Assembly (NCBI GenBank): GCA_964599455.1
Contig: CAZREA010000001.1
Span: 71,687 to 135,686 of the forward strand
Length of the DNA stretch: 64,000 nt
From: an uncultured Gammaproteobacteria bacterium
Lineage (GTDB): Bacteria > Patescibacteriota > Patescibacteriia > UBA9934
Direction: 5' to 3'
The notes under the pieces are model-generated. The model was given only the letters and a program-made list of their open reading frames with translations, made no database searches and was not told the DNA's origin. How positions within the stretch are numbered: the stretch's first letter is position 1; each line of letters begins with the position of its first letter. The position numbers and the translations under genes are program-made. Positions 31,896 to 63,986 of this stretch are shown one piece after another.

Positions 31896-31899
31896 AGAT

Positions 31900-49851: not shown

Positions 49852-49926
49852 TCCGAGGTAGCTCAGCGGTAGAGCAGTTGGCTGTTAACCAATTGGTCCT
49901 GGGTTCAAATCCCAGCCTCGGAGCCA
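49852..49926 (+). tRNA. tRNA-Asn (anticodon GTT)
   Basis: A cloverleaf folds by eye. The acceptor stem is TCCGAGG/CCTCGGA, the D-arm GCTCAGCGGTAGAGC, the anticodon stem-loop GTTGG-CTGTTAA-CCAAT and the T-arm CTGGGTTCAAATCCCAG. The discriminator G and CCA are encoded. Confidence 0.9.
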
Positions 49927-50009: not shown

Positions 50010-50663
50010 ATGAGAAAAGAAGATCTACAAAAGCTAGGATCACCAGATAAGGAAAGTCGGATTGGCAACGATGTCACGGATCATGATTTTCAAGTACTTC
50101 TGAAAGAAATTGAGCAGGCGTGCGTCGTGTTTCCCAAGAAAACCCCAAAACCATTCATCCTCATTCCAACAGGATTGACCGCATCAGGTAAATCGACAAT
50201 CGTAAAACAAATTGCAGAACACTATTCATTGGTCATTATTCGGACCGATAGCATACGAAGTTACTTAGAAGGTAGAGGATTTAATTTGGTGAGAACGGTT
50301 GAATTTGCATATGATCTGGTAATGAACAGTTTAAAACGAGGATACGGTGTAGCGATTGATGCAGATGTAGTTCAGGAGAAGGATAGAGATGTTATGAGGA
50401 AAGTTGCGAGAGAATTTGGAATTCCTCTTATTTCTATCAAGGTTGTTACACCAGAAAATGTTATTTTATCTAGATTAGATGAAAAGAATTTAGATAGAGA
50501 CTATCGGGGTCGGGAAGCGATAAAACGGTATTTTGAACGAAAGCCTCTTCATAGTGATCACGATTTAGATCATGACTTTAAATTCAATGGAAACTCAGAC
50601 TTAGCACCACAGTTAATAATGGCCTTTGAGCGAATCAATGAGCGTCTCACTGAAGAGAGTTAG
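50010..50663 (+). CDS. P-loop kinase (AAA_33-like ATP-binding protein)
   Basis: Walker A ILIPTGLTASGKSTIV. About 200 aa, the size of small-molecule or polynucleotide kinases. Confidence 0.55.
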   Translation: MRKEDLQKLGSPDKESRIGNDVTDHDFQVLLKEIEQACVVFPKKTPKPFILIPTGLTASGKSTIVKQIAEHYSLVIIRTDSIRSYLEGRGFNLVRTVEFAYDLVMNSLKRGYGVAIDADVVQEKDRDVMRKVAREFGIPLISIKVVTPENVILSRLDEKNLDRDYRGREAIKRYFERKPLHSDHDLDHDFKFNGNSDLAPQLIMAFERINERLTEES

Positions 50664-51543
50664 ATCTAAGGTTTGCCAGTTCACCGTTCTAAACCCGTCC
50701 ACTATTCGGAGCCACATGGAACTGACGTGTGAAAATGCGTCAGTTTTATGTTTGTCTTCGCCATTTTTCATCGGTTCTAACCTACGGTACTCGGCTTCTA
50801 ACGCTGGATACTCATTTACGATAGGAACAAGCCAAGGATGTGCCTCAATGCGGAGTTTTCCGTGCAAAATCGTCGGGTTCGAACCTAACGCCATCATGAT
50901 CTCTTTCTTGCGTTGCAGGTCGCCTTTGAGAAAGGCGCTGTGCGCATAGGTGGCAAAGTCGAACAGCTCCTCCGTAAGCTCAAGCCATCGGTCAGCACGG
51001 GTTTCTGTTTTATCAATCTCTTTGCGCAACTCTGCTTGTTCAGCTTTCAAACGGTCACGCTCTCGGATGTATTCGGCATCGTCAATCAAATCCCGTGCCC
51101 GCATGCGGGTGAGGTTATCGATCTGCGACTGGTTTTCAGCAATGGCCGCAAGTTGGGACTCGTACACTTTCGTGCGTTTGGTCACTTCGTTGTCATGGTC
51201 TTTACCGAGGTTCTCCAACGCCCATGTTCGGAACTCTGGGAGAATAGTGACTGTATGGGGATCGTTCTGTTCTATTTGGTTCAAGAAGTTCAAAATCGTA
51301 GGTGTGTTTCTGTTCAGTGTTCTTTCCGATGAGTCGGATCTTTCCTTCGGCATCGAAATCCTGCAAGATTGTGAGCTGTTCGCTTCGATCAAGGAAAATC
51401 GGCTCATAATCACCCTCGTCTTTCACCAAGTACGCAAAATACGAAGCCGTATTACTTCCAGCTTTTTGTGCGGCCTCGGTCAGATTTCCCCACACATACT
51501 TTCGTTTCTGTTCTTGTGACCATGGCCAGTCCCTCGCATCCAT
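50613..51543 (-). pseudogene. multiply frameshifted coiled-coil, recombinase-like gene (possible integrase remnant)
   Basis: Two long ORFs in different frames overlap (51202..51543 and 50613..51413). A third short frame starts at an ATG with a good SD (ggaggagg). The sequence has a long charged coiled coil (DAEYIRERDRLKAEQAELRKEIDK). It is positioned like an int gene next to the Xis-like HTH and a tRNA. Confidence 0.3.
50680..50716. repeat. direct repeat copy 1 (about 37 bp)
   Basis: ttcaccgttctaaacccgtccactattcggagccaca matches copy 2 at 55354-55390 with 6 mismatches. The 28-bp core ctRaacccRtccaStattcggagccaca has 3 mismatches. Confidence 0.75.
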
Positions 51544-51624
51544 AGTTGTGTAATAGTCATTTTCCTCCTCCTGAATATGATGTAGTATATAGTAACTAAT
51601 GGTAAGTCAGGAATCAAGACCGCT

Positions 51625-51813
51625 ATGGACATAAAAACGCTCCCCGACATTCTTACACTTGGTCAAGTGTGCGAGATCTTGAACGTGCATGCAAACACGC
51701 TCCGACAATGGGATGCAAAAGGTATTCTTCCCGCCATCAGATTCGGAGCAAGAGGCGATCGAAGGTACAAGAAACAGGACGTGCTCAAGTTACTGGATCA
51801 AAAGGGTGCTTGA
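51625..51813 (+). CDS. excisionase/MerR-like HTH DNA-binding protein
   Basis: 62 aa. LTLGQVCEILNVHANTLRQWDAKGILPAIRFGARGDRRY is the Xis/AlpA/MerR-type HTH_17 pattern. Confidence 0.6.
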   Translation: MDIKTLPDILTLGQVCEILNVHANTLRQWDAKGILPAIRFGARGDRRYKKQDVLKLLDQKGA

Positions 51814-51825
51814 GCTCATCAAAAA

Positions 51826-52659
51826 ATGATTATGAATATCAAGCATTTTTACGAAAAATCACAAGGGGAGATAGTCGAGCTATTTCGTGATTTTATCGTG
51901 ACCGACATGTTCGAGCAGTATCCAAAGCTGAAAGACAAGATCAGCTTGATTATCACGGGATCCGTTCCTTCTGATCACTACGACCAATACAGCGACATCG
52001 ATTGCGAGTTCTTTTATGTAGAGGAGTCGGATCGGGAAACGATGAACGCAATAGTAAAGGAATACAAAAAGAGTATTCATGAGCGGAAGCTACCAATCCA
52101 GTTTCATCCCGCAAAGACGTTTGAGGAGCTTCGAAAAGAGCATCTCAATGGGTGGAAAAATGATGACGCCCTGCGGGAGTACTCGATTGCACTCGTGGTA
52201 CTTGATCCAGAAGATCGCTATAAGAAAATCGCATCGACGATTCAGTGGTATCCCGAAGATGTTTTGAGTGAAAAAATCAACTGGCTTTTTGCCGAGTCCA
52301 TTTTTCATTTTGAAGATAGATTCGTTATCGCCGCCAGACGAGAAAATGCTCTCTACGCACATTCTGTGCGCTCCCACATCATCAAGCTACTCGGTAACGC
52401 ATTACTCATGACGGGCGGGCATTGGCCTGTTTTTGAAAAGCATCTTTCGACCGAGCTGAATACGTACGGTGAAAAGGACTTTTGTCTTGCAGTGAGTGAT
52501 TTGTTGGTGACAACAGATTTGGGGGAGATGCAAGCGAAGCTGAAAAAAGTCATCGCCTTGGTCGAGGATCGTTTATTGCGAGATGGACGGATTGAAAATA
52601 AAGCATCCGAGCAATGGATTTTGTTACGACCGAAATATCAGGTCGAGCATTGTCGTTGA
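51826..52659 (+). CDS. Pol-beta-superfamily nucleotidyltransferase (ANT(4')/Lnu-like)
   Basis: IITGSVPSDHYDQYSDIDCEFF matches the minimal NTase signature GS-x(9-13)-[DE]h[DE]h (compare kanamycin NTase GVYGSLGRQTDGPYSDIEMMCV). A roughly 180-aa helical C-terminal domain follows. Confidence 0.6.
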   Translation: MIMNIKHFYEKSQGEIVELFRDFIVTDMFEQYPKLKDKISLIITGSVPSDHYDQYSDIDCEFFYVEESDRETMNAIVKEYKKSIHERKLPIQFHPAKTFEELRKEHLNGWKNDDALREYSIALVVLDPEDRYKKIASTIQWYPEDVLSEKINWLFAESIFHFEDRFVIAARRENALYAHSVRSHIIKLLGNALLMTGGHWPVFEKHLSTELNTYGEKDFCLAVSDLLVTTDLGEMQAKLKKVIALVEDRLLRDGRIENKASEQWILLRPKYQVEHCR

Positions 52660-52671
52660 GAAAAACCATCT

Positions 52672-53214
52672 ATGCATCCAGCTGAACCACAGAGCGAGTT
52701 ATTGCAGTGTTTCGATGAGCAGGGTCTTCCTACCGAAGTGCACACGAGAAGCGAAGTAAAAATGATGCCACCACGCTGGTGGTACGCCACGAGTAAAGTA
52801 TGGCTCGTGAACGATCACGGTGAACTCATGTGTTCGAAACGTGCGGAGGGTCTTTCTGGAAATCCAAATAAGTGGCAAACGTATTTCGGGGGTCATGTGG
52901 CGGCGGGACTCACGATCAAAGAGTCGGCGCAGAGAGAGCTTGAGGAAGAAGCGGGCGTTGTTCGGCCTCTTGAGGACTTTCATTTTATTGATCGTGGTCG
53001 AGATGACATAAAGAAGGTGCATTACGAGTTTTACGCCGTGCGTTTCAATGGTCAGCCATCGGATCTTCACTTTTCTGATAACGAGGTCACCGAAGCGAAA
53101 TGGATGAGCATGGAGAAATACTGGTCTGATCAAGCGGCAAATTCTGACCGTTGGTGCAACGGCTGTACGCCTGAACGACAACAGTTGATCTGTGATTGGT
53201 TGAAAGCCGTCTGA
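52672..53214 (+). CDS. Nudix hydrolase
   Basis: Nudix box GGHVAAGLTIKESAQRELEEEAGV, which has the same 13-residue spacing as MutT (GGKIEMGETPEQAVVRELQEEVGI). Confidence 0.75.
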   Translation: MHPAEPQSELLQCFDEQGLPTEVHTRSEVKMMPPRWWYATSKVWLVNDHGELMCSKRAEGLSGNPNKWQTYFGGHVAAGLTIKESAQRELEEEAGVVRPLEDFHFIDRGRDDIKKVHYEFYAVRFNGQPSDLHFSDNEVTEAKWMSMEKYWSDQAANSDRWCNGCTPERQQLICDWLKAV

Positions 53215-53705
53215 TGGGCGGGGTATCTATGCCTATTGTTTTCACAATACATCCCGCTTTGGAAACCGCTTCGTTGCCCAGCGTTAGCGAAGTGAGTTCG
53301 GTTGCGCTTATTGCGTTGAACCAGCATGGCGAAATACTAGTCACTCACCATAAAGAGCGAGGTTGGGATATTCTTGGTGGTCACGTCGAAAATGGGGAAA
53401 GTATTATTGAGGCGTTACAGCGTGAGGTACTCGAGGAGGCGGGGGCGACATTCGGAAAAGCGACCTTGATTGCAACAATCGCCTCTGATGCAACCGAGGA
53501 GAAATACCGTGGGAAATCGATGCTCATTTTTGTAACGAACGATTTTCAGCTGACCGAACAGTGGCGACCGTCTGATGATGTTTCGGATCGAGCGATTATC
53601 AGCGCTGACGAGATGCTCAAGGGATATCACGGTGATAAAGGCGGCATGATCGAGTTACTGAATCTGGCCGCAAGACGTTTGGGATTATCTGCAAGACATC
53701 TATGA
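53196..53705 (+). CDS. Nudix hydrolase
   Basis: Canonical Nudix box GGHVENGESIIEALQREVLEEAGA. It overlaps the upstream Nudix gene by 19 nt. Confidence 0.8.
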   Translation: MVESRLMGGVSMPIVFTIHPALETASLPSVSEVSSVALIALNQHGEILVTHHKERGWDILGGHVENGESIIEALQREVLEEAGATFGKATLIATIASDATEEKYRGKSMLIFVTNDFQLTEQWRPSDDVSDRAIISADEMLKGYHGDKGGMIELLNLAARRLGLSARHL

Positions 53706-54484
53706 GCATATTCAACCCAGAACTGCGTGAAAACCGTGAATCAAAATGGGAGGAAAATCGATTCTCTCCCGACCTTCAGAAGAAGCTATTGAAGGCGCTT
53801 GATGATGGTAAGGATCGATTCCCTGATATTGTTCAGTGTCCCAACCAAACATGTGGAAACCCTTTGAAAATAGAGATGCAAAAGGATGCTATCTTGGTAC
53901 ATTGCACTAACTGTGGTTGGGAAAGCGTCGTGAGGAGGATTTCGGCATCGAGCTTACGGAAAGATCGTAAATATAGCATCGTGCCTTATCAGCCAAGTTG
54001 GGCGACTGACTTCGAAACTGTCAAAAAGCAGATCGCTCCAGTATTTGGTGATCGAGCCGTTGAGATAATGCATGTTGGAAGTACGGCGATCGTCGGCATG
54101 AGTGGGAAACCCACCATCGATGTACTTGTAATCGTAAACGCCATTACAGGGGTGGACGATTTGAACGGAGCGATGTCTGAACTGGGCTACATCGCACTTG
54201 GTGAATATGTCGCCCCGAATGGCCGACTATTTGCAAAGGAGGTGAATAACGAGCGCTTGGTCAACGTGCATTGTTTTGAGAAAGATCATCCGCATGCGCA
54301 AGAAATGATCGTGATGCGTGACTTCTTGCAAAGCCATCCCGACGAGGCAAAGGCATACGCCGATTTGAAGATCCGCCTGTACGAACAGTACCCTGACGAT
54401 TATCAGGCATACCGACATGTCAAAGATCCATATTTGGCAGAAATGAAAATACGAGCAATGGAATGGGGGCGTACCCATCGCTAA
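53702..54484 (+). CDS. Zn-ribbon / GrpB-family (nucleotidyltransferase-fold) fusion protein
   Basis: The N-terminus has a CPNQTCGN...CTNCGW zinc ribbon. The C-terminus has HVGSTAIVGMSGKPTIDVLV, the GrpB/UPF0157 motif. It has an ATGA overlap with the upstream gene. Confidence 0.65.
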   Translation: MSIFNPELRENRESKWEENRFSPDLQKKLLKALDDGKDRFPDIVQCPNQTCGNPLKIEMQKDAILVHCTNCGWESVVRRISASSLRKDRKYSIVPYQPSWATDFETVKKQIAPVFGDRAVEIMHVGSTAIVGMSGKPTIDVLVIVNAITGVDDLNGAMSELGYIALGEYVAPNGRLFAKEVNNERLVNVHCFEKDHPHAQEMIVMRDFLQSHPDEAKAYADLKIRLYEQYPDDYQAYRHVKDPYLAEMKIRAMEWGRTHR

Positions 54485-54640
54485 ACGCAATCTGCCACTG
54501 TGAGCTTGGGAATGTGAATGTACCCTTTGTGCTCACGAATAGCGGTTCCGATGTCGTTTGCGATGTGGAGCCAACAGGACTTGAACTAGAAATGGTTCAA
54601 GTTTTGTTTTACATTAGAAAAAAGATGGGTTCTGACCACT

Positions 54641-55318
54641 ATGGAAATCAATCATCAAAAAATATTAAAAGATTTCATCTCGCACCTAGATAAGTATATT
54701 GCGCTCCTTGAAAAAGGATCATCATCCACCATCGATATCCCCGATGACCTAGATGTAAAGCAAATTTACAGAATATTTCTTAGGAGATTTCGATCAAATC
54801 TTTACGCTTTATTATCACTCGAAGATCCTTTAATATTCGCCCTTCTGCAGCGGTATAATCATGAAATGTTATTAGATTTTTATTTTCTATGTTCTGATAA
54901 AGATGAAGAAAAGCGAGCGAAGAATTTCAAAAAGTTTTCATCATTTCCAAAAGAAATTCCAGAAGAAATAAAATCAAAAAAATGGAAAAAGTGGGGTGGT
55001 TACGATACATCTTATAAAGAGATATTCATGCCACCTTGGACTGGTAGTCAAGATTCTTTCGAAAATATTTATAAACATCTGAGCAATCTAGCTCATTCGA
55101 ATATTCTATCTATCACCCTCAACGTTCTTGATAATGACGCTAAAAGAAGCCGTAAAGTTATAACCGAAGCAATTTTTCTCTGTATTTTTGAGATAGCCAC
55201 ATGTCTCGATTACTATGGCTTTAGAATAATACTCGGCCCGAATGATTTAAATGATGATTTATATTCTGCTAATTTAGACTTTCAACACCAAGCAGGCCTC
55301 ATGCTAATCTCAGATTAG
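54641..55318 (+). CDS. hypothetical protein (AT-rich compositional outlier)
   Basis: 225-aa Lys/Asn/Ile-rich ORF in a segment visibly more AT-rich than anything else in the window. No motif recognised. Confidence 0.4.
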   Translation: MEINHQKILKDFISHLDKYIALLEKGSSSTIDIPDDLDVKQIYRIFLRRFRSNLYALLSLEDPLIFALLQRYNHEMLLDFYFLCSDKDEEKRAKNFKKFSSFPKEIPEEIKSKKWKKWGGYDTSYKEIFMPPWTGSQDSFENIYKHLSNLAHSNILSITLNVLDNDAKRSRKVITEAIFLCIFEIATCLDYYGFRIILGPNDLNDDLYSANLDFQHQAGLMLISD

Positions 55319-55390: not shown

Positions 55391-55581
55391 GAAATCTCTC
55401 GCATTTCACGAGGGATTTTTGTATTTTCAAGTCCCTCCCCGGGCGGGTACAGAACTTGATTTCCCTTAACCCCCAGAGCGATTTTTTAGGAGGTCGTACG
55501 AGCACCCGGGTCACATGGCAAAATGAGACAAATGAGACACAAAAACGGGGTGTGTCTCAAGTTAAAATTAACCCAGATTTT

Positions 55582-56091
55582 ATGCGCACAAAACGCGAAC
55601 AGATCGAATCTTTCAAGGAACTTTGGAAGAAAGAGTACGACCAAGATTTAACCGACGATCAGGCGTTGGAGTATTCCGAGAATCTCCTGGGACTTTACCG
55701 AACTTTGCTCGACGTTCATGTAAGGATGGAACAGTGGAAGGAGCGGCTTATCAAAGAGCCCGATGGATTCGCGGTGACCAATCAGGGTACTTATTCGTGT
55801 GCCGTTTGTTCGCAGCACATGTTCAACGATGAGGGCTGGTATGACCAATTCGGCATTAAGTGCCCTGTTTGCCAGAAGGCCGTGAAGGAAGGCGTGATCC
55901 CCGGAGAAGTCGCCTGCAAGTCCGATACCTGGTTATCATCGGATGATCTCAAAAAGAAGTTCGGTTGGCACCATACGACTGTCGCCAAGAAAGTGCGGAA
56001 CGGCGAGCTCAAGGCGCGGCAGATCAAGAATGGCGAGCATCATTGGTTCTATGTGTTTTTGAAGGAAGAAAATCCGGACATTAGCCAATAG
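55582..56091 (+). CDS. hypothetical Zn-ribbon protein with C-terminal HTH-like segment
   Basis: The sequence CAVCSQH...CPVCQK forms four Cys. The C-terminal LSSDDLKKKFGWHHTTVAKKVRNGELKARQI is HTH_17-like. The start is uncertain (ATG 55582 chosen; the longest ORF starts at 55456). It converges on, and overlaps, the CD-NTase 3' end. Confidence 0.4.
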   Translation: MRTKREQIESFKELWKKEYDQDLTDDQALEYSENLLGLYRTLLDVHVRMEQWKERLIKEPDGFAVTNQGTYSCAVCSQHMFNDEGWYDQFGIKCPVCQKAVKEGVIPGEVACKSDTWLSSDDLKKKFGWHHTTVAKKVRNGELKARQIKNGEHHWFYVFLKEENPDISQ

Positions 56092-57442
56092 GTACATTGA
56101 CACTGCCTTTTCCAACAAGCATTCCCGTAGAATTCTCAACTAAGTATGCCTCTACATAATGAGCGCCCGAATAAGAAGTCGTCTCCTTTTTGCGATACGA
56201 ACCTTGGTCACGAGTAATCTCTCCACGAAGTTGCCCCTTCGCGCGAGCCTCTTCGCCCGTGTTGCGCACCTTCCAATAAAGAGTATGACGCGATTTATCG
56301 ATATTTCTCGGTGGCTTCACGAAGAATTGAAGAGTGGCATTCTTCAACAGCATGTTACCGATCATTGAGAGTCGCTTTCCAAGAAACTTCATACGCTTGA
56401 TGTCTGCATCGACCACCAAAACAAGTAGAACAGGAGCGGTTCCACTGATGTAGTTCTCGATAAAGTCTTCTTGAACCGAGGGAAAACGAACAGCAACGGC
56501 GAATGGCGAAATAGACAGCAAGGGAGACGCTGCCTTTCCAATGACACACTCGTCGCCAAAGATGTCAATCATTTCGGCTTCAAAGTCCTCATCGCTGGAA
56601 GTCAGAGCATCAAGAATTCTTGATGAGTATCCATCAAATTTCTCTCGGAAATTTTCGTATTCCTCCTGTGTCCAGTGACGGGAGGTGAATTTCTCGCTCA
56701 TCAATGCTGGATTGTATACATCCGGCATGTCCTGGTTAGCCTGAAGATATCCGTTCAATCGTGAGAGGATGGTTTTACAAGTGGTTGCGAGATCCGCATA
56801 CAGGCGCTGGTCATCGGCATGATTAACCTGCAGGCCGAGTAATGTCGTTAATACTATAGACTTTACCTTGAATGTACCCTTGTAATCGCGAAGGTATTTT
56901 ACGAGACGAACTACTTTAGAGAGATTTCCGTTAGTGATTGCATTTTGTGAGGCAAACCACTCTGCATACCCGTCTCCATCCGTAGGTTCAGATTGGTTTG
57001 TATTCTTGTTAAAGATAACCTTCTGGGATCCAACCTGCACACAAGGGACGATATCGATATGAAAATCGCTTTCGTAATCCAGTGTTACGCAACGAGTCTT
57101 ACCTCGTCGGTCTACGATGTCGCGATAACGATCCATGCCGTAGAAAAAATCGTGTAGGTGCTTAAGGTAATCCTTCGGCTCCCACCCAGCGACTTCCTTC
57201 TGTATAAACAGCAGGTCAAGGTCGAAATCGTCATCTTCGGCAACAGGCCGAATGGCCGTGTCATTGCGAAATGACCCTTGCGGAACCAAATCGACGAAAA
57301 GATCCTTATAAGGATCGTTATTCTGAAGAAGGCCGGTGACAACCTCGATTCCTTTGTGAATGCGCTCAACGCGATTTTCATTCAGGGATACGCAGTCACT
57401 CACAAAGGATTCAAGACAGTCATTGATTTCTTTCTGTGCCAT
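56081..57442 (-). CDS. SMODS-domain cGAS/DncV-like nucleotidyltransferase (CD-NTase) with C-terminal extension
   Basis: The sequence VPQGSFRNDTAIRPVAEDDDFDLDLLF matches the CD-NTase GS-x4-TA[IL]-x-[DE]h[DE]h pattern. A third acidic motif, DFHIDIVPCV (hDhVP), lies about 60 aa later. A roughly 150-aa C-terminal region of unknown fold follows. Confidence 0.6.
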   Translation of the reverse strand: MAQKEINDCLESFVSDCVSLNENRVERIHKGIEVVTGLLQNNDPYKDLFVDLVPQGSFRNDTAIRPVAEDDDFDLDLLFIQKEVAGWEPKDYLKHLHDFFYGMDRYRDIVDRRGKTRCVTLDYESDFHIDIVPCVQVGSQKVIFNKNTNQSEPTDGDGYAEWFASQNAITNGNLSKVVRLVKYLRDYKGTFKVKSIVLTTLLGLQVNHADDQRLYADLATTCKTILSRLNGYLQANQDMPDVYNPALMSEKFTSRHWTQEEYENFREKFDGYSSRILDALTSSDEDFEAEMIDIFGDECVIGKAASPLLSISPFAVAVRFPSVQEDFIENYISGTAPVLLVLVVDADIKRMKFLGKRLSMIGNMLLKNATLQFFVKPPRNIDKSRHTLYWKVRNTGEEARAKGQLRGEITRDQGSYRKKETTSYSGAHYVEAYLVENSTGMLVGKGSVNVPIG

Positions 57443-57447
57443 ATAGA

Positions 57448-58590
57448 TTAGTTAAGAGTAATCGTTGGTCGGTATTCACCATCAACAAGATCGTGAATCA
57501 CCACTTTAGGAGCGACATCGCGAAGAAGCTCTCGACCGCAGATGATGGCGATCGGTGCAGGAACCGCGAGAAAGAAGTGCACTTTCTCAACATTTCTATG
57601 ACGTGATTCAAGCAGCGACAAAAATTCCTGGAAAGTGTTCCGGAAGTTTTCCAATGTCTTTGGTGAACGTAGGAGTGTTCTGCTCGGCGGCACATCAATT
57701 GGTTCGATCTGGTAGACGATTCCGCCACCCATCGATTTCTCGACCTTATCAACCTCACCTCCGCTGATTGAAGCAAGGAATGCTATTTTGTTGCCACTCT
57801 GTTTTCCGTGCTGGGAAATTTTAAACTTCACCTCAGCACCATCTTCCGGCCAGATCCATCCCTCACCGTCATCTCTATGCTTTTGATAAAGGCTGATCGG
57901 GACTTTGTCACCAAGGTGATAACCGAAGAAACAAAGAAGTGGAATGCGGGCAAGTGAAAACACAGAAAGACGCTCGATATCCCCGCGCTCGATTTGTGGC
58001 AGGATTTGCTCTTGCAGTACGGTCTTGATCTTAGCAGTACCCGCCTTCCAGTAATCCCTGTCGCCGGTATCCGCGATTTTTCCGAGGTCAATGTCGATTA
58101 TTCGCTGGTCGGTATAGCGTTTTTCATGCTTAAACACCGCCGGGTACACCTCACTGTCTGACATCTTTGTGAGATTTCCCCTGACTTGTCCCAACAAACG
58201 GATTACGTGCGTTTTCGCTGTTGCCGGAATACTTGTCAAAAGTGTCATGCGATCTTCGTGCTTCTGTTTCCACTCCCGAAGAAGATCGACTGGAAAATCG
58301 GGGACATGTTTCTTCTTATCTATAAGCGCATGATGCTTGGTGCACATCAGCATCAAGTTTTCCGGTTCAGACCGCTTTTTCATTGGCAGTGGGTGATCTC
58401 CTCGAGGTCCCTTGCGTGAATCTCCGACAATGTGCGCAATATTTCCAAGTCGTGCTTTTTTATGAGTCAGCGATTCAACCATGACCCCCTCGGGGCAGCC
58501 GTAAAACGAGCAGCGACCAGCGGCTGCAACGTATACTTCAAGAATGGTTGCCTCGGAAATCGCTGGCGCTTTTTCTTCTCTTTTTGCCAT
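57448..58590 (-). CDS. Cap5-like CBASS effector (N-terminal HNH endonuclease + C-terminal SAVED-like domain)
   Basis: The N-terminus has HNH motif elements (CSFYGC..., NIAHIVGDS, ENLMLMCTKHHALID). The roughly 260-aa C-terminal remainder has the size of a SAVED sensor domain. It sits 5 nt upstream of the CD-NTase gene. Confidence 0.6.
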   Translation of the reverse strand: MAKREEKAPAISEATILEVYVAAAGRCSFYGCPEGVMVESLTHKKARLGNIAHIVGDSRKGPRGDHPLPMKKRSEPENLMLMCTKHHALIDKKKHVPDFPVDLLREWKQKHEDRMTLLTSIPATAKTHVIRLLGQVRGNLTKMSDSEVYPAVFKHEKRYTDQRIIDIDLGKIADTGDRDYWKAGTAKIKTVLQEQILPQIERGDIERLSVFSLARIPLLCFFGYHLGDKVPISLYQKHRDDGEGWIWPEDGAEVKFKISQHGKQSGNKIAFLASISGGEVDKVEKSMGGGIVYQIEPIDVPPSRTLLRSPKTLENFRNTFQEFLSLLESRHRNVEKVHFFLAVPAPIAIICGRELLRDVAPKVVIHDLVDGEYRPTITLN

Positions 58591-58591
58591 A

Positions 58592-59266
58592 CTAACTCCA
58601 GTTCACGGTCGGTTTTTTAAGAACGAACTTTACCTCACCTGCCACGAAGAATTTATCGGAGTCTTCCGGATGAAGAAAGATTGGCGGGTTAGGTTCTGTG
58701 GATTCCGAGAGAAGCGCGATCTCCCCCGTCTGGTCGTTCTTGGAGAATCGCTTGATGTTCGCCAGACCTTCGAGCACAGCGACGATGTAGGAACCCGACT
58801 CCGGATTGCGCTTGGTGGAGTCGATGATGACGTAGTCGCCGTCCTCGATGCTGTTCTTGCGATCTCCCGCCTTTGCAGCGTTCATGGAGTTGCCGCTTGC
58901 GCGAAGGGCGAACAGCTTCTTTCCCGGATGGACGAGCTTCGCTGAGACCTGAAGGAAGCCTTCCACCACGTCTTCCGCGTACAGACTTGCGGGACCGCAG
59001 TTTGCGGCACCAAGGATCGGGATGGAGTTCAGAGAAAGATTGTCACCGCGGTCATCAAGTGCAGTCACGACACCGCCCTCTCCCTTTTTAAGATGCCCCG
59101 ACGCGTAAAGCTGGGAAAGGTGATAGCTCACGCCGCTTGGGTTCTTGATACCAACGGCGTCCCCAATCTGCTGGAGGGACATATCGCCCAAGTTCCGGCT
59201 ACGGGCGAGGGCAAGAAGTTTGCGTTTTGTCTCATGCATACGGGTAAATACTAGCTTGCTTTGCAA
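58592..59266 (-). CDS. LexA/CI-like S24-family repressor
   Basis: The N-terminus has a winged HTH (LQQIGDAVGIKNPSGVSYHLSQL). The C-terminal S24 peptidase domain has the Ser nucleophile in ASGNSM and the Lys in LANIKRF. Its stop lies 1 nt before the Cap5-like start. Confidence 0.8.
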   Translation of the reverse strand: MQSKLVFTRMHETKRKLLALARSRNLGDMSLQQIGDAVGIKNPSGVSYHLSQLYASGHLKKGEGGVVTALDDRGDNLSLNSIPILGAANCGPASLYAEDVVEGFLQVSAKLVHPGKKLFALRASGNSMNAAKAGDRKNSIEDGDYVIIDSTKRNPESGSYIVAVLEGLANIKRFSKNDQTGEIALLSESTEPNPPIFLHPEDSDKFFVAGEVKFVLKKPTVNWS

Positions 59267-59296
59267 ATCCTTTCAAGTCCTGTAATATTGCGGTAT

Positions 59297-59830
59297 ATGC
59301 CAGCAAAAATAAGATTCCTTAATCCGGTGTGGCGAGAAATGGCCGAACTAGCTCTTCAAGAGCAGACAGAGCGTGTGAGGGAGCTAGGAGCATCCATGCG
59401 TGACCACGCGGAAATCAGTCGTACCCTTCTTTCCGCATCATCGTTCAATGGAATAAAGGGCTCTGAAGACCGAATAGCTGAGCGTGTGACGAACAGCCTG
59501 ACCGACCTCTTTGTGACTGCAGGTGGTGCCGATCGTGTCGTCTTCGTCGTCTCGGATAATACTTTGCGGCGCTGGCCATCCACCGCAACGGGAATGCTGC
59601 TCAGTGCGCAACGCAGGAAGTTGATCGAGTCCCTATCTCACGAATTTACTTCTCCAAAAACTCTGGCAGCACGTTCGGGTTTTAAGAATGCTGTCGGCGT
59701 GCAACAGGCGGTAGCAAAGATCAAGCGCAAATTTCAAGCGACGTTCGGATTGTCGACACCTTTCATTGAAGGACGGGAGGGCTACGGATACAGACTCGCC
59801 GAAGCATACAGCCTGATCGACACCGCTTAA
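59297..59830 (+). CDS. hypothetical regulator with OmpR-type winged-helix C-terminus
   Basis: It is divergent from the S24 repressor. The C-terminus PFIEGREGYGYRLAE resembles the trans_reg_C wing. The start is moved to MPAKIRF. Confidence 0.4.
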   Translation: MPAKIRFLNPVWREMAELALQEQTERVRELGASMRDHAEISRTLLSASSFNGIKGSEDRIAERVTNSLTDLFVTAGGADRVVFVVSDNTLRRWPSTATGMLLSAQRRKLIESLSHEFTSPKTLAARSGFKNAVGVQQAVAKIKRKFQATFGLSTPFIEGREGYGYRLAEAYSLIDTA

Positions 59831-59922: not shown

Positions 59923-61242
59923 GTGAGTGCGGGAAAATTTCTGCATATGAAAACCCAATCAACAGCCAAGCTCACATGGCGAACCGAGAAGCGGCGCGTC
60001 ACGGATCTCGTGCCAAACGACAAGAACCCTCGGGTCATGAGCCCGAAGCAGGTCGAGGATCTCACGAATAGCCTCAAGAAATTCAATCTCGTTGAAATCC
60101 CCGTCATCGACGCGGACGACAAGGTGCTCGCAGGCCATCAACGCCTGGCCGTACTGAAACTCCTTGGACGTGAGGACGAGGAAATCGAAGTGCGTGTACC
60201 GAATCGCAAGCTCACACAATCTGAATACGACCAATACCTTCTCACGAGCAATCGCGTCCACGGTGATTGGGATTGGTCAAAGCTCGCGGAAGGATTCGAT
60301 ATCGATCTGCTGCTCGACGTCGGGTTCGACAGCGAAGACATCGCTAATATCTGGGATGAGACGCTTGAGACGGAAGACGATGAGTTCGATGTGGCGAAGG
60401 AAATCGCCGCAATTAAGAAGCCCGTAACTAAACCGGGAACGCTTTACGCGCTTGGCTCACATCGTCTGCTCTGCGGAGACTCAACCAAGACCGAGGAAGT
60501 GAGGCTGCTCGTTAGCAAACGTGAAGTGGGCTTTATCGCTTGCGATCCCCCGTACAACATCGGGCTCTCTTACGACAAAGGCGTCGGCACTGCTGGGAAG
60601 TACGGAGGACACAAGACCAACGACAGCCTGAGCGACAAGGACTATCGCGCATTCATCAGGAAGACGATGGAGAACGCACTCGGCGTCGCAAGGCACGACG
60701 TCCACGCCTTCTATTGGTGCGACGAGTCCTACATCTATCTCATGCAGGAACTGTTCCGCGAATTCGGACTTACGAATCGGCGCGTCTGCATTTGGCTCAA
60801 GGACAACGCAAATCCCACACCGGGCGTTGCTTTCAACAAAGTCAGTGAACCGTGCGTGTACGCAACGCGCGGGAAGCCGTATCTCGCACCCTCCGTTATG
60901 AACCTGAACGAAGTCCTCAATAAAGAAGTTGGTACAGGCAACCAGCTTATCGAGGACGTGCTTGATCTCCTCAACGTATGGCTTGTGAAACGCCTCGCCT
61001 CATCTTCTTACGAACATCCGACGAGCAAGAATCCGACGCTCCACGAAAAGTCATTGCGACGCTGCACTAAGCCAGGTGATTACGTTCTCGACCTATTCGG
61101 TGGAAGCGGTTCGACGCTCATTGCCTGCGAACAGCTCAAACGTCGCGCACTTCTCTGTGAACAGGAGCCGATTTTTTGTGACGTGATCGTAAAGCGATAC
61201 GAAAAACTTACCGGCAAAAAGGCGGAAATCATTAGCTCGTGA
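59923..61242 (+). CDS. ParB-like nuclease domain fused to DNA N6-adenine/N4-cytosine methyltransferase
   Basis: The N-terminal ParB/Srx fold reads EIPVIDADDKVLAGHQRLAVL. In the methyltransferase domain the DPPY motif (IACDPPYNI) precedes the AdoMet motif DLFGGSGST (beta-class order). Confidence 0.8.
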   Translation: MSAGKFLHMKTQSTAKLTWRTEKRRVTDLVPNDKNPRVMSPKQVEDLTNSLKKFNLVEIPVIDADDKVLAGHQRLAVLKLLGREDEEIEVRVPNRKLTQSEYDQYLLTSNRVHGDWDWSKLAEGFDIDLLLDVGFDSEDIANIWDETLETEDDEFDVAKEIAAIKKPVTKPGTLYALGSHRLLCGDSTKTEEVRLLVSKREVGFIACDPPYNIGLSYDKGVGTAGKYGGHKTNDSLSDKDYRAFIRKTMENALGVARHDVHAFYWCDESYIYLMQELFREFGLTNRRVCIWLKDNANPTPGVAFNKVSEPCVYATRGKPYLAPSVMNLNEVLNKEVGTGNQLIEDVLDLLNVWLVKRLASSSYEHPTSKNPTLHEKSLRRCTKPGDYVLDLFGGSGSTLIACEQLKRRALLCEQEPIFCDVIVKRYEKLTGKKAEIISS

Positions 61243-61245
61243 TTT

Positions 61246-61665
61246 ATGTCGGAAGAAAACCGTATCGAAGTCCGGCAAGCCGAGCAAAAAAAGCTACTGA
61301 TTGATCAGCTTAAGAAGACGCCGATCGTGCAGGTCGCCTGCGAGAAGATCGGCGTCGGTCGCGCCACGTTCTACCGGTGGCTTAAGGACGATCCCGATTT
61401 CGGAAAGCTCGCCAACGAATCCATTACCGAAGGTAACGGCCTCATCAGCGACGTGGCCGAAAGCCAACTTGCGAACCTTATCAAGAGCGGAAACCTCGGA
61501 GCTATCTCGTTTTGGCTCAAACATCGCCACCCCGCCTACCGCAACAAGGTGGAAGTACAAGCTAATGTCCGCCATGAAGACACGCCGCTTACCCCCGAAG
61601 AAATGGAGGTCGTTGCTCAGTCGCTACGGCTCGCACTCACAGGTGATGAGAATCAAGAAAATTAA
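61246..61665 (+). CDS. phage terminase small subunit (HTH type)
   Basis: 139 aa. The N-terminal HTH reads VACEKIGVGRATFYRWLKDDPDF. It is immediately upstream of the terminase large subunit. Confidence 0.55.
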   Translation: MSEENRIEVRQAEQKKLLIDQLKKTPIVQVACEKIGVGRATFYRWLKDDPDFGKLANESITEGNGLISDVAESQLANLIKSGNLGAISFWLKHRHPAYRNKVEVQANVRHEDTPLTPEEMEVVAQSLRLALTGDENQEN

Positions 61666-61674
61666 TCCTTACTT

Positions 61675-63204
61675 ATGCAAAGTCAAACAGCTCAACCTAC
61701 CAAAGAGCTCATCGACAGCCTTCTAACGAATCACAAGACCCGCGTTGCGGTCACTCGGGCAAGCCACCTCATGTTTTGTGCAACCTACTTTGCGCATTAC
61801 ACCCAATTTCCATTTGCGGACTTTCACCGGGAGATGTTCGCGCTTAGCGAGCGCGACGACATCCCGCTCTTTATCGTGGAAGCGTTCCGGGGCTCGGGAA
61901 AATCCACCATCATGACGATGTCGCTGCCCATCTGGAGCGTGCTCGGAAAGGATCAGCGGAAGTTCATCATGCTTTTGGGTCAGACGCAGCGACAGGCTAA
62001 ACAGCACTTCATGAACCTCAAGCGCGAACTTGAGACAAATGAACTGCTCCGCAATGACCTGGGACCATTTGAAACTGTTGAGGATGAGTGGGGTTCAAAT
62101 TCAATCGTGCTGACCCGCTACGGCGCGAGGATTACCTGCGCGTCCATGGAACAGCCGATTCGTGGAATGCGTCACGGACGCCATCGTCCCGATCTGGTGA
62201 TCTGTGACGACGTGGAAGACGTATCCTCGGCAAAGACGAAAGAAGGACGCGATAAAGCCTACCAGTGGTTTACGAGCGAGGTGCTCCCCATTGGGGACGA
62301 ACGGACCAAGATCGTTGTGGTGGGAAATCTGGTTCACGAAGATGGACTGCTCTCGCGTTTGGAAAATGCCATTACCAACAAAGAGCGTAAAGGCGTTTTC
62401 AAGAAGTATCCGTTTCTCGACGGCAAGGATAAGCCGCTCTGGAAGAGTCGTTTCCCAACCAAAGAAGACGTGCAGAAGAAAATTGCGTTCGTCGGCGACC
62501 TGATTACCTGGGCGCGCGAATACATGCTCTACATCATCTCGGACGTCGAGCGTGTTATTCATCGCGAATGGCTCCACTATTATGACGAGCTTCCCGGCGT
62601 GAATGGAGACAATTTCAAGTTCGGTGTTATTGGGGTGGATCTCGCCATCTCCCAACGGAGCCGCGCCGACTATACCGCCATCGTTACGGCGATGGTGTAC
62701 AAGAATGGCGACAGCCGAAAGATATATATCTTGCCAAGCCCAATAAACGCGCGTCTGACATTTCCCCGTGCAGTCGAGAAAATCAAGGATACTCACGACG
62801 CGTCGCCACGCCCGAAGAAGACCAAAATCGCTGTTGAATCCGTTGCGTATCAGGCCGCCATGTGGCAGGAACTTAAGCGCCAAGGATACGAAGCCGAGCC
62901 ATACGAGGTACGAGGAAGCGACAAGCGTTCTCGTCTTGCGCTTCTTTCAGAGCCGATTAAGAACGGCACCATTCTTTTCCCGAAGCACGGAGCAAAGGAT
63001 CTTATTAACCAACTCGTAAACTTTGGCGTAGAGCGCCACGACGACCTTGCGGATGCCTTTGCAATCACTGCTTCTTATGGCATGGAGAAGAAGATTAAGA
63101 CATTTGGCGTCTGGGTCATCGACACCAGGCCAGAGCCTCGTTACAGCCTCGGGGACGTGTTCGGTGGCGGATACTGGAATCAGCCCGGAAACTTCCGACG
63201 ATGA
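61675..63204 (+). CDS. phage terminase large subunit
   Basis: Walker A IVEAFRGSGKSTIM, Walker B LVICDDVED, and a C-terminal RNase H-like nuclease region (VIGVDLAISQRSRADYTAIV...DDLADAFAI). Confidence 0.85.
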   Translation: MQSQTAQPTKELIDSLLTNHKTRVAVTRASHLMFCATYFAHYTQFPFADFHREMFALSERDDIPLFIVEAFRGSGKSTIMTMSLPIWSVLGKDQRKFIMLLGQTQRQAKQHFMNLKRELETNELLRNDLGPFETVEDEWGSNSIVLTRYGARITCASMEQPIRGMRHGRHRPDLVICDDVEDVSSAKTKEGRDKAYQWFTSEVLPIGDERTKIVVVGNLVHEDGLLSRLENAITNKERKGVFKKYPFLDGKDKPLWKSRFPTKEDVQKKIAFVGDLITWAREYMLYIISDVERVIHREWLHYYDELPGVNGDNFKFGVIGVDLAISQRSRADYTAIVTAMVYKNGDSRKIYILPSPINARLTFPRAVEKIKDTHDASPRPKKTKIAVESVAYQAAMWQELKRQGYEAEPYEVRGSDKRSRLALLSEPIKNGTILFPKHGAKDLINQLVNFGVERHDDLADAFAITASYGMEKKIKTFGVWVIDTRPEPRYSLGDVFGGGYWNQPGNFRR

Positions 63205-63206
63205 GT

Positions 63207-63986
63207 CTACTTGTCAGCGGCTGTTACGCCCGTGTAATAGCCGCTCTTGTTTATGATCTGCACCGGTTTTACGGAGTAGGTGGTTGCGTTTTCGTCCATA
63301 TTTGCGAGCTTCGCGAGTGACTTCCAGTCGCGTGTCTCTCCAGTTCCACCGTCGCCAAGAGCATCCTCATTTGTGGCGATGAAGAAGCTCGTGACCTGGC
63401 GTGACTTCATGTCGTAGTCGAGCACCAAATCGTATCCGTTAACTTTGAACGAGTTGTCCCAAGTTGTTGTACCCATGGAGATTTGTAGAGCGGTGGGTTC
63501 AGTTTGCTTGCCGTCGGTGGGCGTACCGAGTTCCTTGCGCGCATCTTCAATTGTCAGCGAGAGGATGTGCGGGGCGTCGACGATGGGCGTTACGGTTTCG
63601 TCAGCAACGGAGGCGTCATTCTGCTCACTCATTCCTTCGATGAAACCAACGATTGCACCGACGCTGATAAGAGCAATGAAAATGATTCCGCAGACCTTGA
63701 GCAAAAGCGTCATCTGGCTCGGCTCCTTCGTCGTTCCACTTGGATCGGGATGCTGGCTATCTAGATCGAGGTAAACGGTATAGTCGTTCTTCGCCATGTA
63801 ATACAAGGCGTACGGAATTACGCCGGTAATCAAAGCAAAGAGACAGGAAAAGGACTTCTTGCGAACAAGCTGCGCACTTGATGAATCTTGTAGCGTGACC
63901 GTGTAACCGTGCTCGACCAACTCTTTGATCTGAGCCTTGAGGTTGTTTGGGTGTTTGTTAACGACCCAAGCGGGGTTGTGAGCCAT
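63207..63986 (-). CDS. hypothetical membrane-anchored protein (prophage-borne)
   Basis: 259 aa with two hydrophobic helices (LFALITGVIPYALYY, LLLKVCGIIFIALISVGAIVGFI) and a Thr/Asp-rich extracellular part. Confidence 0.4.
   Translation of the reverse strand: MAHNPAWVVNKHPNNLKAQIKELVEHGYTVTLQDSSSAQLVRKKSFSCLFALITGVIPYALYYMAKNDYTVYLDLDSQHPDPSGTTKEPSQMTLLLKVCGIIFIALISVGAIVGFIEGMSEQNDASVADETVTPIVDAPHILSLTIEDARKELGTPTDGKQTEPTALQISMGTTTWDNSFKVNGYDLVLDYDMKSRQVTSFFIATNEDALGDGGTGETRDWKSLAKLANMDENATTYSVKPVQIINKSGYYTGVTAADK

Follow-up and report, generated by a model that had tools for sequence, protein, structure and literature searches.

How abortive-infection systems are silenced and released is an active question, and to our knowledge three classes of DNA damage-sensing immune regulators have been described since 2022, none of which works via the classical RecA-LexA route. 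CapW, CapH/CapP, and CapK/CapS all place a repressor beside immune operons, either of the cyclic-oligonucleotide-based antiphage signaling system (CBASS) or of other kinds; they raise expression of these operons upon DNA damage and accompany many different defense systems. CapW combines winged helix-turn-helix (wHTH), WYL, and WCX parts, CapH/CapP pairs a helix-turn-helix (HTH) protein that is removed by proteolysis with a DUF955 zinc metallopeptidase, CapK/CapS pairs a kinase with a repressor, and all of them sense single-stranded DNA (ssDNA) directly. Here, we describe a locus within a window of 64,000 nucleotides (nt) from an uncultured bacterium assigned by GTDB to the Patescibacteriota (assembly GCA_964599455.1, contig CAZREA010000001.1, positions 71,687 to 135,686; positions below are those of the window). 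In it, a gene for a LexA-like repressor of the S24 family is followed on the minus strand by cap5 and cdn, the effector and cyclase genes of a CBASS. This repressor resembles the known regulators in standing beside a CBASS operon, whose expression it may likewise raise upon DNA damage, but it is a single LexA-type protein with an S24 protease of its own, presumably coupled to RecA, and it is the first gene of the operon, whereas CapH/CapP is encoded on the opposite strand. Searches of Pfam, PADLOC, and NCBIfam revealed no CapH, CapP, CapW, CapK, or CapS domains in the operon or its neighbors, which agrees with a first-pass annotation, made from the letters of the sequence, that had set its control apart from that by CapH/CapP and CapW, and extends the distinction to CapK/CapS.

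Several other described systems share parts of this arrangement. In lambda cI-rexA-rexB, a self-cleaving-type S24 repressor is likewise followed on the same strand by abortive-infection genes, the cI mRNA from PRM is leaderless, as is predicted here, and the operon diverges from another arm on a mobile element. Unlike the window repressor with its LexA wHTH fold, however, CI has an HTH; the cargo is RexAB instead of CBASS, lambda has six operators against one candidate here, relatives of the window locus hold many unrelated cassettes, and just three phage-type genes are present in the window. Of the lambda analogy drawn in the first-pass annotation, the repressor-first arrangement divergent from a phage-type arm is supported, and the complete prophage is less certain, with no integrase or structural genes visible in the window. 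Type I CBASS of the CdnG-Cap5 kind consists of the same two genes, for a cGAS/DncV-like nucleotidyltransferase (CD-NTase) and an HNH-SAVED effector, whereas the window cyclase has an extra C-terminal AGS_C domain and the effector gene comes first. Canonical LexA shares with the window repressor the two-domain fold, the Ser-Lys dyad, the cleavage loop, and probably autoregulation from its own promoter; the window protein departs from it in a score below the family cut-off, a Cys-Gly site, another recognition helix, a private candidate operator, location on a mobile element, and foreign base composition. Finally, temperate phages and satellites carry defense hotspots, such as those of P2/P4 and, in cluster N mycobacteriophages, a variable region next to the immunity cassette that is expressed from the prophage. 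There, as here, a conserved backbone flanks a slot of unrelated defense systems beside an integrase/repressor module, but here the slot starts at the repressor stop codon, where a cassette would inherit the promoter and damage-sensing switch of the repressor, and the hosts are Patescibacteria. DNA damage-coupled control of defense and the linkage of defense genes to a prophage repressor are already known; the conserved cassette slot is new. Searches of the openly accessible full-text literature turned up no account of LexA or S24 regulators joined to operons for CBASS, SMODS, or further defense systems, subscription-only papers lying outside those searches.

A LexA-type repressor and the CBASS genes behind it

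The first protein of the operon matches Pfam Peptidase_S24 (2.4e-16). Its AlphaFold2 (AF2) model, with a predicted local distance difference test (pLDDT) score of 81, finds as its best Foldseek matches full-length LexA structures through both domains, namely, 3k2z (T. maritima LexA), 3jso (E. coli LexA-DNA complex), and 8trg (LexA on a RecA filament), whereas lambda CI matches through its C-terminal domain only. Pfam LexA_DNA_bind has no match in the window protein and is recorded for several family members. Ser118 (in ASGNSM) and Lys163 (in IKRF) are invariant in a 19-member family alignment spanning 41 to 93% identity and align with S119 and K156 of E. coli LexA. The reading of an S24 repressor of the autoproteolytic type, which the first-pass annotation had based on a wHTH and these two motifs, is thus borne out by the LexA fold and the alignment of the dyad. 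Cys81-Gly82 is invariant in the same 19 members and aligns with the A84-G85 bond of LexA, and Cys-Gly is an accepted UmuD-type cleavage site (PMC8565304). By sequence and modeled fold, the protein appears to possess all that is needed for RecA-stimulated self-cleavage.

In gene content, the locus corresponds to a type I CBASS with a Cap5 effector, which follows from the full-length Cap5 alignment of the effector and the CD-NTase model of the cyclase. The effector contains a SAVED domain in both Pfam (2e-30) and NCBIfam (NF033611, 4.6e-31); finding this part had been set beforehand as the test on which its assignment would stand or fall. It also matches the PADLOC endonuclease effector model over its full length (1e-101) and SAVED_HNH (3.9e-99), with a weak Pfam HNH_2 match that lies under its cut-off (0.0024). 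In a phmmer search of the PDB, the Cap5 structure 8ysq aligns at 4e-44 over residues 8 to 380, followed by 7rwk, 7rwm, and 8fm1. For the cyclase, Pfam identifies SMODS (1e-22), a DncV-like NTFase domain, and a C-terminal AGS_C domain (1.7e-23), and the PADLOC oligonucleotide-cyclase model matches at full length (5e-119). The catalytic motifs named in the first-pass annotation proved real, as G56-S57, D74-x-D76, and D130 (HIDIVP) are invariant among 24 homologs, and the protein aligns with CdnG, which is among its best sequence matches, and with cGAS-like structures through QGS...DfDlD...hiDivP. Its AF2 model (pLDDT 86.7) comprises an SMODS/NTase core (residues 1 to 300), a disordered linker (303 to 322), and a beta-rich AGS_C domain (about 334 to 452), and the best 50 PDB matches are all bacterial CD-NTases, so the cyclase withstands the second test set beforehand, that of modeling as a CD-NTase. 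Synthesis of a cyclic oligonucleotide, activation of Cap5 by it, and protection against phages are the predicted activities of such a system. Ancillary Cap2/Cap3 or HORMA/TRIP13 genes are absent from the three-gene operon, and its neighbors are without such domains in Pfam and PADLOC. The SMODS plus AGS_C architecture is widespread, occurring in Cyanobacteria, Spirochaetota, and several metagenome-assembled genomes (MAGs) of Patescibacteria; therefore, CBASS in a host from the candidate phyla radiation (CPR), which had at first been thought notable, is unremarkable in itself.

The three minus-strand open reading frames (ORFs) lie where first annotated, with a 1-nt spacer between the S24 gene and cap5 (58591) and a 5-nt spacer between cap5 and cdn (57443 to 57447). 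A GGAG precedes the cap5 ATG by 5 nt, which places this Shine-Dalgarno sequence inside the S24 coding sequence, and both it and the 1-nt spacer are kept in two related loci, L133 (GCA_034680565.1) and L013 (relatives are given by locus number where they must be told apart). L133 retains the complete packing of the three genes, and an 11-nt overlap with a convergent gene, at 79% nucleotide identity. Ratios of nonsynonymous to synonymous substitution (dN/dS) between the window and L133 are 0.047 for S24, 0.038 for cap5, and 0.039 for cdn, and all three genes are therefore under maintaining selection. A scan of the minus strand from 55.3 to 60 kb, limited to sigma-70 consensus sites and made against the background that CPR promoters are poorly characterized, returned the promoter upstream of S24 as its sole hit, with terminator-like matches at chance (7 found and 5.4 expected). 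The single-operon packing proposed at the outset is in keeping with these tight spacers, which leave no room for an internal promoter between genes, and with the same packing in L133; packing, scan, and conservation together suggest that S24, cap5, and cdn are cotranscribed. The start of the first gene requires correction. The upstream TTG (59266) chosen in the first-pass annotation was rejected on the basis of conservation and an in-frame stop in L004, while eight loci share the context of ATG 59239, GTATGCATGAGAC, without any change, and this ATG is also the start in the public gene call. Consequently, the divergent intergenic region spans about 59240 to 59326.

The -10 box of the S24 promoter ends 8 nt before the ATG (8 to 9 nt across loci), and a Shine-Dalgarno sequence is lacking, which predicts an S24 mRNA with no leader or almost none. 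Overlapping the -35 box is a 15-nt block, ATATTACAGGACTTG, that is identical in eight of eight close-clade promoters, at loci where coding DNA is only about 77 to 85% identical, and that is found exactly once per locus. In L133, the block extends into a perfect 8-bp inverted repeat, ATATTACA-N5-TGTAATAT, over the -35 box. We regard ATATTACAGGACTTG as the candidate operator to which the repressor would bind. A repeat search of the intergenic region itself gave none, and the palindrome becomes visible only through comparison with L133. The close clade has a predicted recognition helix, NPSGVSYHL, that is distinct from the HPQKVKHHL of typical CPR LexA, which fits a private operator without cross talk with host SOS boxes. 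A different palindrome, TTTGCAAA, which the first-pass annotation had located at about 59300 and suggested as an operator, actually occupies 59260 to 59267, in the promoter spacer, and was rejected since it is not conserved in relatives.

It can be hypothesized from these observations, with a probability that we put at roughly 55%, that S24, cap5, and cdn form one operon under a RecA-coupled, autoregulated LexA-type switch that serves as a portable platform for exchangeable defense cassettes on mobile elements. Transcription would start from the conserved sigma-70-type promoter, which is probably leaderless and lies on the margin of an element with phage-type packaging genes, and the repressor, bound to ATATTACAGGACTTG over its own -35 box, would keep expression of the whole operon, and with it that of CBASS, low and autoregulated. 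RecA-ssDNA filaments would form upon DNA damage or in the course of phage replication, whereupon the repressor would cleave itself at Cys81-Gly82 via Ser118 and Lys163, the promoter would be derepressed, and Cap5 and the CD-NTase would rise. Once infection is sensed, the cyclase could then make a cyclic oligonucleotide that, bound by the SAVED domain, turns on the HNH DNase of Cap5, leading to abortive infection. If this is true, the oldest bacterial damage sensor would be wired directly to CBASS and many other defense systems. As a compact module of promoter and repressor, the locus also provides a defined candidate for the operator and a set of natural cassette swaps.

The cassette slot in close relatives and the wider family

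The window repressor has 463 detected homologs, almost all of about 210 amino acids (aa) and most of them 40 to 48% identical to it; those with names come mostly from Patescibacteria and are often called "repressor LexA." Its 90%-identity cluster contains a GenBank protein whose source is a MAG of Candidatus Uhrbacteria, which supports a CPR host. Where the S24 protein is at least 48% identical, 10 of 10 recovered loci have a same-strand defense operon downstream, representing five CBASS kinds and a TIR/caspase pair. The window (100%) and L133 (93% S24 identity) carry Cap5 and the AGS_C cyclase; L013 (93%) carries a Cap5 only 31% identical to that of the window with an unrelated cyclase; and L007 (= L009 = L094; 93%), in a 55.9-kb IMG/VR viral contig, carries an NTase and Cap15. 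A ThsB-like TIR protein and a caspase-like peptidase follow the repressor in L004 (89%) and L008 (92%), a pair that may resemble type IV Thoeris. SMODS and S_4TM proteins are encoded in L002 (= L003; 87%) and again in L011 (59%), a SAVED effector, SMODS, Cap2, and Cap3, that is, a type II CBASS, in L010 (85%), and a Cap5-like protein with an NTase in L012 (48%), which has a host-like neighborhood. Six different cassettes are thus present in the eight loci with S24 at least 85% identical, with two more at 59% and 48%. At about 46% identity, in L005 and L006, the S24 gene stands alone amid housekeeping genes.

The boundaries of the exchange are sharp. DNA similarity between close loci ends at the S24 stop codon, and that of the window to L002, L004, L007, and L008 is confined to 59294 to 58597, which is about 50 bp of promoter and the S24 gene. 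Among these four relatives, similarity resumes at the gene for a convergent large serine recombinase, and therefore the cassette lies between two stop codons; the slot is closed by this recombinase in most relatives and would be closed by a 211-aa gene in the window. Upstream flanks within the close clade are all different, comprising phage lysis genes, FtsZ/pyruvate kinase, SNase, the terminase arm, and various tRNAs. On this comparative evidence, the repressor, usually together with the recombinase, is the mobile backbone, and the exchangeable slot follows the repressor stop codon. Cassettes may be exchanged by homologous recombination in the conserved flanks.

A divergent, lysine-rich ORF of 44 to 50 aa (MPKKATSKKIAKVASKQLRSK..SALSQREKKRR) lies upstream of S24 in L002 (4507 to 4641, minus strand), L004, L007, L008, L010, and L013 and is absent from the window and L133. 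Just past it, in four of the six loci, is a tRNA gene, different each time (Ser-GCT, Asp, Ser-TGA, and Ser-GGA). Small DUF2188 genes also recur beside S24 genes: they stand divergently upstream in L006 (9585 to 9773) and L011 (164 to 382), two more are present in the genome survey described below, and a DUF2188-looking ORF (MPNYHVTNKKGSDNWRIVKE...; about 8652 to 8880) fills a 252-nt gap behind S24 in L007. The preprint on CapH/CapP associates DUF2188 operons with its DNA damage regulators.

The survey covered species-representative genomes of GTDB, in which a single-protein query found no match and an alignment-based scan returned 80 loci at 37 to 45% identity, mostly from Patescibacteria, with some from Acidobacteriota, Nitrospirales, and Chitinophagaceae. 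A codirectional ORF begins within 300 nt past the S24 stop codon in 61 of the 80. The first two codirectional downstream ORFs of each locus, 102 proteins in all, were scanned in batch with Pfam, which identified C5 DNA methylases (7), N6_N4 methylases (7), N6_Mtase (7), Eco57I (3), D12 methylases (2), SMODS (2), ThsB_TIR (2), PemK (4), Fic (2), class II aminoacyl-tRNA synthetases (aaRS; 5), and MgsA (4); PADLOC added type IIG enzymes. When cargo is classed by local clustering and direct annotation of the partner genes, it includes type II restriction-modification (RM) pairs, in which the endonuclease is of the MvaI/BcnI, NgoPII, or HNH kind, together with six type IIG enzymes, one type ISP enzyme, one Eco57I/TaqI-like enzyme, the two SMODS loci, and one Schlafen/AlbA_2 protein. 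The start codons of the four PemK toxin genes overlap the S24 stop codon. Altogether, at least 30 of the 80 loci, as an approximate count, have defense-type genes directly downstream on the same strand. Outside this set, an S24 homolog on IMG/VR contig L096 is followed after 2 nt by the gene for an AbiEii-type ATPase and then by that for an OLD-family nuclease.

In a neighbor-joining tree of the S24 proteins, defense-linked genes fall into clades of their own, each with mixed cargo, and those beside aaRS, MgsA, or further housekeeping genes group apart from them. Dedicated regulator lineages account for such a distribution better than would a random hotspot next to one lexA of the host. A broader proposal, which we consider tentative and rate just short of even, is that LexA-family S24 repressors of Patescibacteria and a few other phyla have diversified into dedicated, first-gene, RecA-coupled switches for antiphage operons, among them CBASS types I and II, TIR/caspase, type II/IIG/ISP RM, OLD/Abi ATPases, and PemK. 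Such switches would make up a fourth, single-protein class of immune regulators that respond to DNA damage, after CapW, CapH/CapP, and CapK/CapS. In the lineage of the window, the repressor, usually with a convergent serine recombinase, would bound an integron-like slot in which each cassette inherits a damage-sensing promoter. The CPR lineage is largely without CRISPR, and its immunity has been little studied. The position immediately downstream of these S24 genes could offer a route to defense gene discovery in CPR, where it holds several ORFs without a known family.

Such Pfam-less ORFs are packed behind S24 in L051 (1793 to 3281), L053 (3745 to 4617), L092 (6998 to 8140), L025 (2214 to 3353), and L012 (12808 to 13575), and they are candidates for undescribed defense proteins because the position behind S24 often holds defense genes. 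The PemK/MazF-type genes (L035, 6744 to 7094; L073, 6735 to 7067; L084, 1184 to 1732; L088, 6735 to 7076) start 3 to 21 nt before the S24 stop codon, and their S24 LexA-like partners are longer, at about 245 to 255 aa, with the self-cleaving-type repressor in the antitoxin position. Past PemK lie a RhuM-Fic protein in L035 and a TOTE-type archaeo-eukaryotic primase-helicase in L084.

Promoter features recur in the wider family as well, in which a -10 box 6 to 10 nt from an ATGCA(T/C) start is common. Upstream of the host-type S24 genes of the survey (L014 to L093), palindromes are strongly enriched: YTTGWCAAR occurs in 16 of 80 loci, often in two copies, compared with 0.1 in shuffles, and GTCAA-N4-TTGAC is found mostly at defense-linked loci. 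Nearly all of these S24 genes have the ATGCA(T/C) start with a TATAAT-like box 6 to 10 nt upstream. This suggests leaderless lexA-type genes across Patescibacteria.

Weighing the alternatives

Several observations weigh against the defense switch proposed here. The repressor scores 68.9 bits against the NCBIfam LexA equivalog TIGR00498, whose cut-off is 110.95; because of this score, and because the operator candidate is found once per locus, we do not file the protein as a bona fide host LexA, the SOS master regulator. In the window, the block comprises only the left arm and center of the L133 palindrome, the right arm being degenerate (TGAAAGGA versus TGTAATAT), which could mean weak binding or another role for the block, for example, that of an UP-like element. 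Autoregulation may be negative, in the manner of lexA, or positive, in that of lambda PRM. An internal promoter unlike the sigma-70 consensus may exist, and in L007, where the cassette begins 252 nt after S24, the cassette may have a promoter of its own. In the survey, three ORF clusters were assigned to methylase families by matching cluster sizes to Pfam counts and by partner annotation.

Of the competing explanations, the one that survives best, although we think it unlikely, sees S24 as the master maintenance repressor of a complete prophage, as CI is in lambda, and CBASS as a passive cotranscribed moron like rexAB, expressed in lysogens and tied to the lysis-lysogeny switch instead of a defense circuit of its own. 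The first-pass annotation had described the repressor as divergent from a regulator/ParB-methylase/terminase arm. PHROGs supports the ParB-N6/N4 DNA methyltransferase (ParB-MT), small terminase (TerS), and large terminase (TerL) of this arm, but the supposed regulator, a 167-aa protein, has no significant family match in Pfam, NCBIfam, or PHROGs and is just 48% identical in L133, though its flanks are conserved. The phage-type arm has a G+C fraction of 0.53, against 0.457 for the host, and the S24 gene belongs with it (0.52 to 0.55 from S24 through TerL). A homologous ParB-MT/TerS/TerL block (48 to 58% aa identity) recurs near the S24 module in L002, the 93% identical repressor of the IMG/VR viral contig sits after LysM and Amidase_2 genes and before a serine recombinase gene, and most close relatives pair S24 with a large serine recombinase, as in a lysogeny module. 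The predicted leaderless mRNA parallels that of cI from PRM, and a single operator between two divergent genes could control both.

What speaks against a complete prophage is, in the first place, that the window and an extra ~570 bp of contig L001 contain no integrase, portal, capsid, tail, or lysis gene and that in both the window and L002 TerL is followed by an unrelated opposite-strand gene. The operator candidate, occurring once per locus, has no copies at other promoters, and the fold is LexA-type rather than CI-type. Furthermore, the module of L004 is flanked by host cell division genes with a tRNA on one side and a type I restriction gene on the other, phage genes being absent, and L012 and many GTDB loci are in host-like neighborhoods. 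The prophage maintenance repressor envisaged in the first-pass annotation thus keeps its divergence from a phage-type arm, but three phage-type genes only, a single operator copy, and relatives at phage-free loci leave it in doubt, and the data argue against prophage maintenance as the whole story. It is conceivable that the same switch could also control the terminase arm, because the single operator sits between S24 and the divergent 167-aa gene, and the lambda-like and defense switch readings are not mutually exclusive. Instead of a complete phage, the ParB-MT/TerS/TerL block may represent an element that is satellite-like or decayed.

A second explanation, which we consider improbable, is that the genes are adjacent without being coregulated, with a nonconsensus promoter in the 3' portion of S24 driving cap5-cdn and the repressor acting on other targets. 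The limits of the promoter scan, the gap in L007, and the fact that unrelated cassettes each bring their own 5' ends are compatible with it. However, the 1-nt spacer and the Shine-Dalgarno sequence inside the S24 coding sequence are conserved in L133 and L013, same-strand tight packing is found in all 10 loci with S24 at least 48% identical, and the S24 coding sequence is conserved across unrelated cassettes, so that any promoter inside it would in any case belong to the backbone.

Least probable of all is that S24 is simply the host chromosomal lexA and the DNA behind it a mere insertion hotspot, for example, a serine recombinase attB, with defense genes lacking any regulatory tie, in the manner of SCCmec, whose insertion site is the end of rlmH. 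In its favor, this is the family to which the LexA proteins of Patescibacteria belong, with members named accordingly in the sources, about 46% relatives sit alone among housekeeping genes, and the stop codon marks the exact boundary of the cassette, with the serine recombinase at the far end in L002, L004, L007, and L008. However, the differing upstream flanks of the close clade mean that the S24 gene moves too, its G+C fraction of 0.55 matches the element and not the host, defense-linked S24 clades are separate from housekeeping-linked ones, the recognition helix is not that of typical CPR LexA, and spacers of 1 to 25 nt, with PemK starts overlapping the S24 stop codon, indicate operon integration.

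The element edge and the remainder of the window

The features of the operon and its surroundings are collected in Table 1. Compared with the window, L133 presents one continuous block at 79% nucleotide identity from window position 59309 to 55436, in which S24 is 93%, Cap5 88%, the cyclase 83%, and the convergent 211-aa protein 70% identical. Past this point, L133 encodes GIY-YIG, DUF362, CoaD-like, and UvrB proteins, whereas the window encodes DUF5677, GrpB, and two Nudix proteins; the element therefore ends at about 55.4 kb, with the operon at its very edge. Base composition agrees with this: between S24 and cap5, the G+C fraction drops from 0.55 to 0.48, and cap5, cdn, and the 211-aa gene lie at 0.46 to 0.48.

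Table 1. Positions of the operon, its control region, and adjoining features in the window
Feature	Position	Strand	Remarks
tRNA-Asn	49852-49926		
Approximate mobile element end	55436		Similarity to L133 stops
Convergent gene	55456-56091	+	211 aa; public gene call starts at 55582, 169 aa
cdn (CD-NTase)	56081-57442	-	453 aa
cap5 (HNH-SAVED effector)	57448-58590	-	380 aa
S24 repressor gene	58592-59239	-	215 aa from ATG; longer ORF reaches TTG 59266
Sigma-70-like promoter, TTGAAA-17 nt-TAGTAT	59248-59276	-	Promoter scan; both hexamers conserved in relatives
Invariant 15-nt block ATATTACAGGACTTG	59274-59288	-	Overlaps -35; left arm and center of candidate operator
Divergent 167-aa gene	59327-59830	+	Gene call on L001
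ParB-N6/N4 DNA methyltransferase	59923-61242	+	Pfam; PHROGs 1.4e-88
Small terminase (TerS)	61246-61665	+	Pfam; PHROGs 1.3e-10
Large terminase (TerL)	61675-63204	+	Pfam; PHROGs 1.7e-76

The convergent 211-aa gene, the last of the block common to L133, overlaps the 3' end of cdn by 11 nt in both loci, and its dN/dS is 0.21. Its product has no Pfam, NCBIfam, PADLOC, or PHROGs match; it carries two CxxC pairs and occupies the position of the serine recombinase in relatives.

At the other end of the element, the gene after TerL (region 61675 to 63986) is an opposite-strand ORF of 259 aa with no family match, and there is no portal gene; in L002 (10840 to 12986), a 217-aa ORF and a D12 methylase gene follow TerL. 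Terminase relatives in IMG/VR are just 24 to 26% identical and provide no usable synteny. An att-type repeat of the tRNA-Asn 3' end was not found in the window or L001, nor were att-type repeats found between tRNA and recombinase flanks in L002, L004, and L008; serine recombinases leave only a 2-bp core, so missing att repeats are uninformative.

The first 49 kb of the window are ordinary chromosome, with genes for ClpB, PriA, SerRS, a class II aaRS, PBP2, AddA, ATP synthase α/β, MetRS, and PepA. Directly downstream of the gene for the AddA-like UvrD/PD-(D/E)XK helicase-nuclease are ORFs of 475 and 540 aa without a Pfam match (30468 to 33522, minus strand). Between the tRNA and the element, 50010 to 55318 on the plus strand encodes an AAA_33 kinase, a nucleotidyltransferase-like protein, two NUDIX hydrolases, GrpB, and a DUF5677-like protein at a G+C fraction of 0.443. 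That the 50- to 55.3-kb region forms part of the same element was ruled out by the end of L133 similarity at about 55436 and the different G+C fraction; L133 lacks the block at this position, and it may represent an island of its own.

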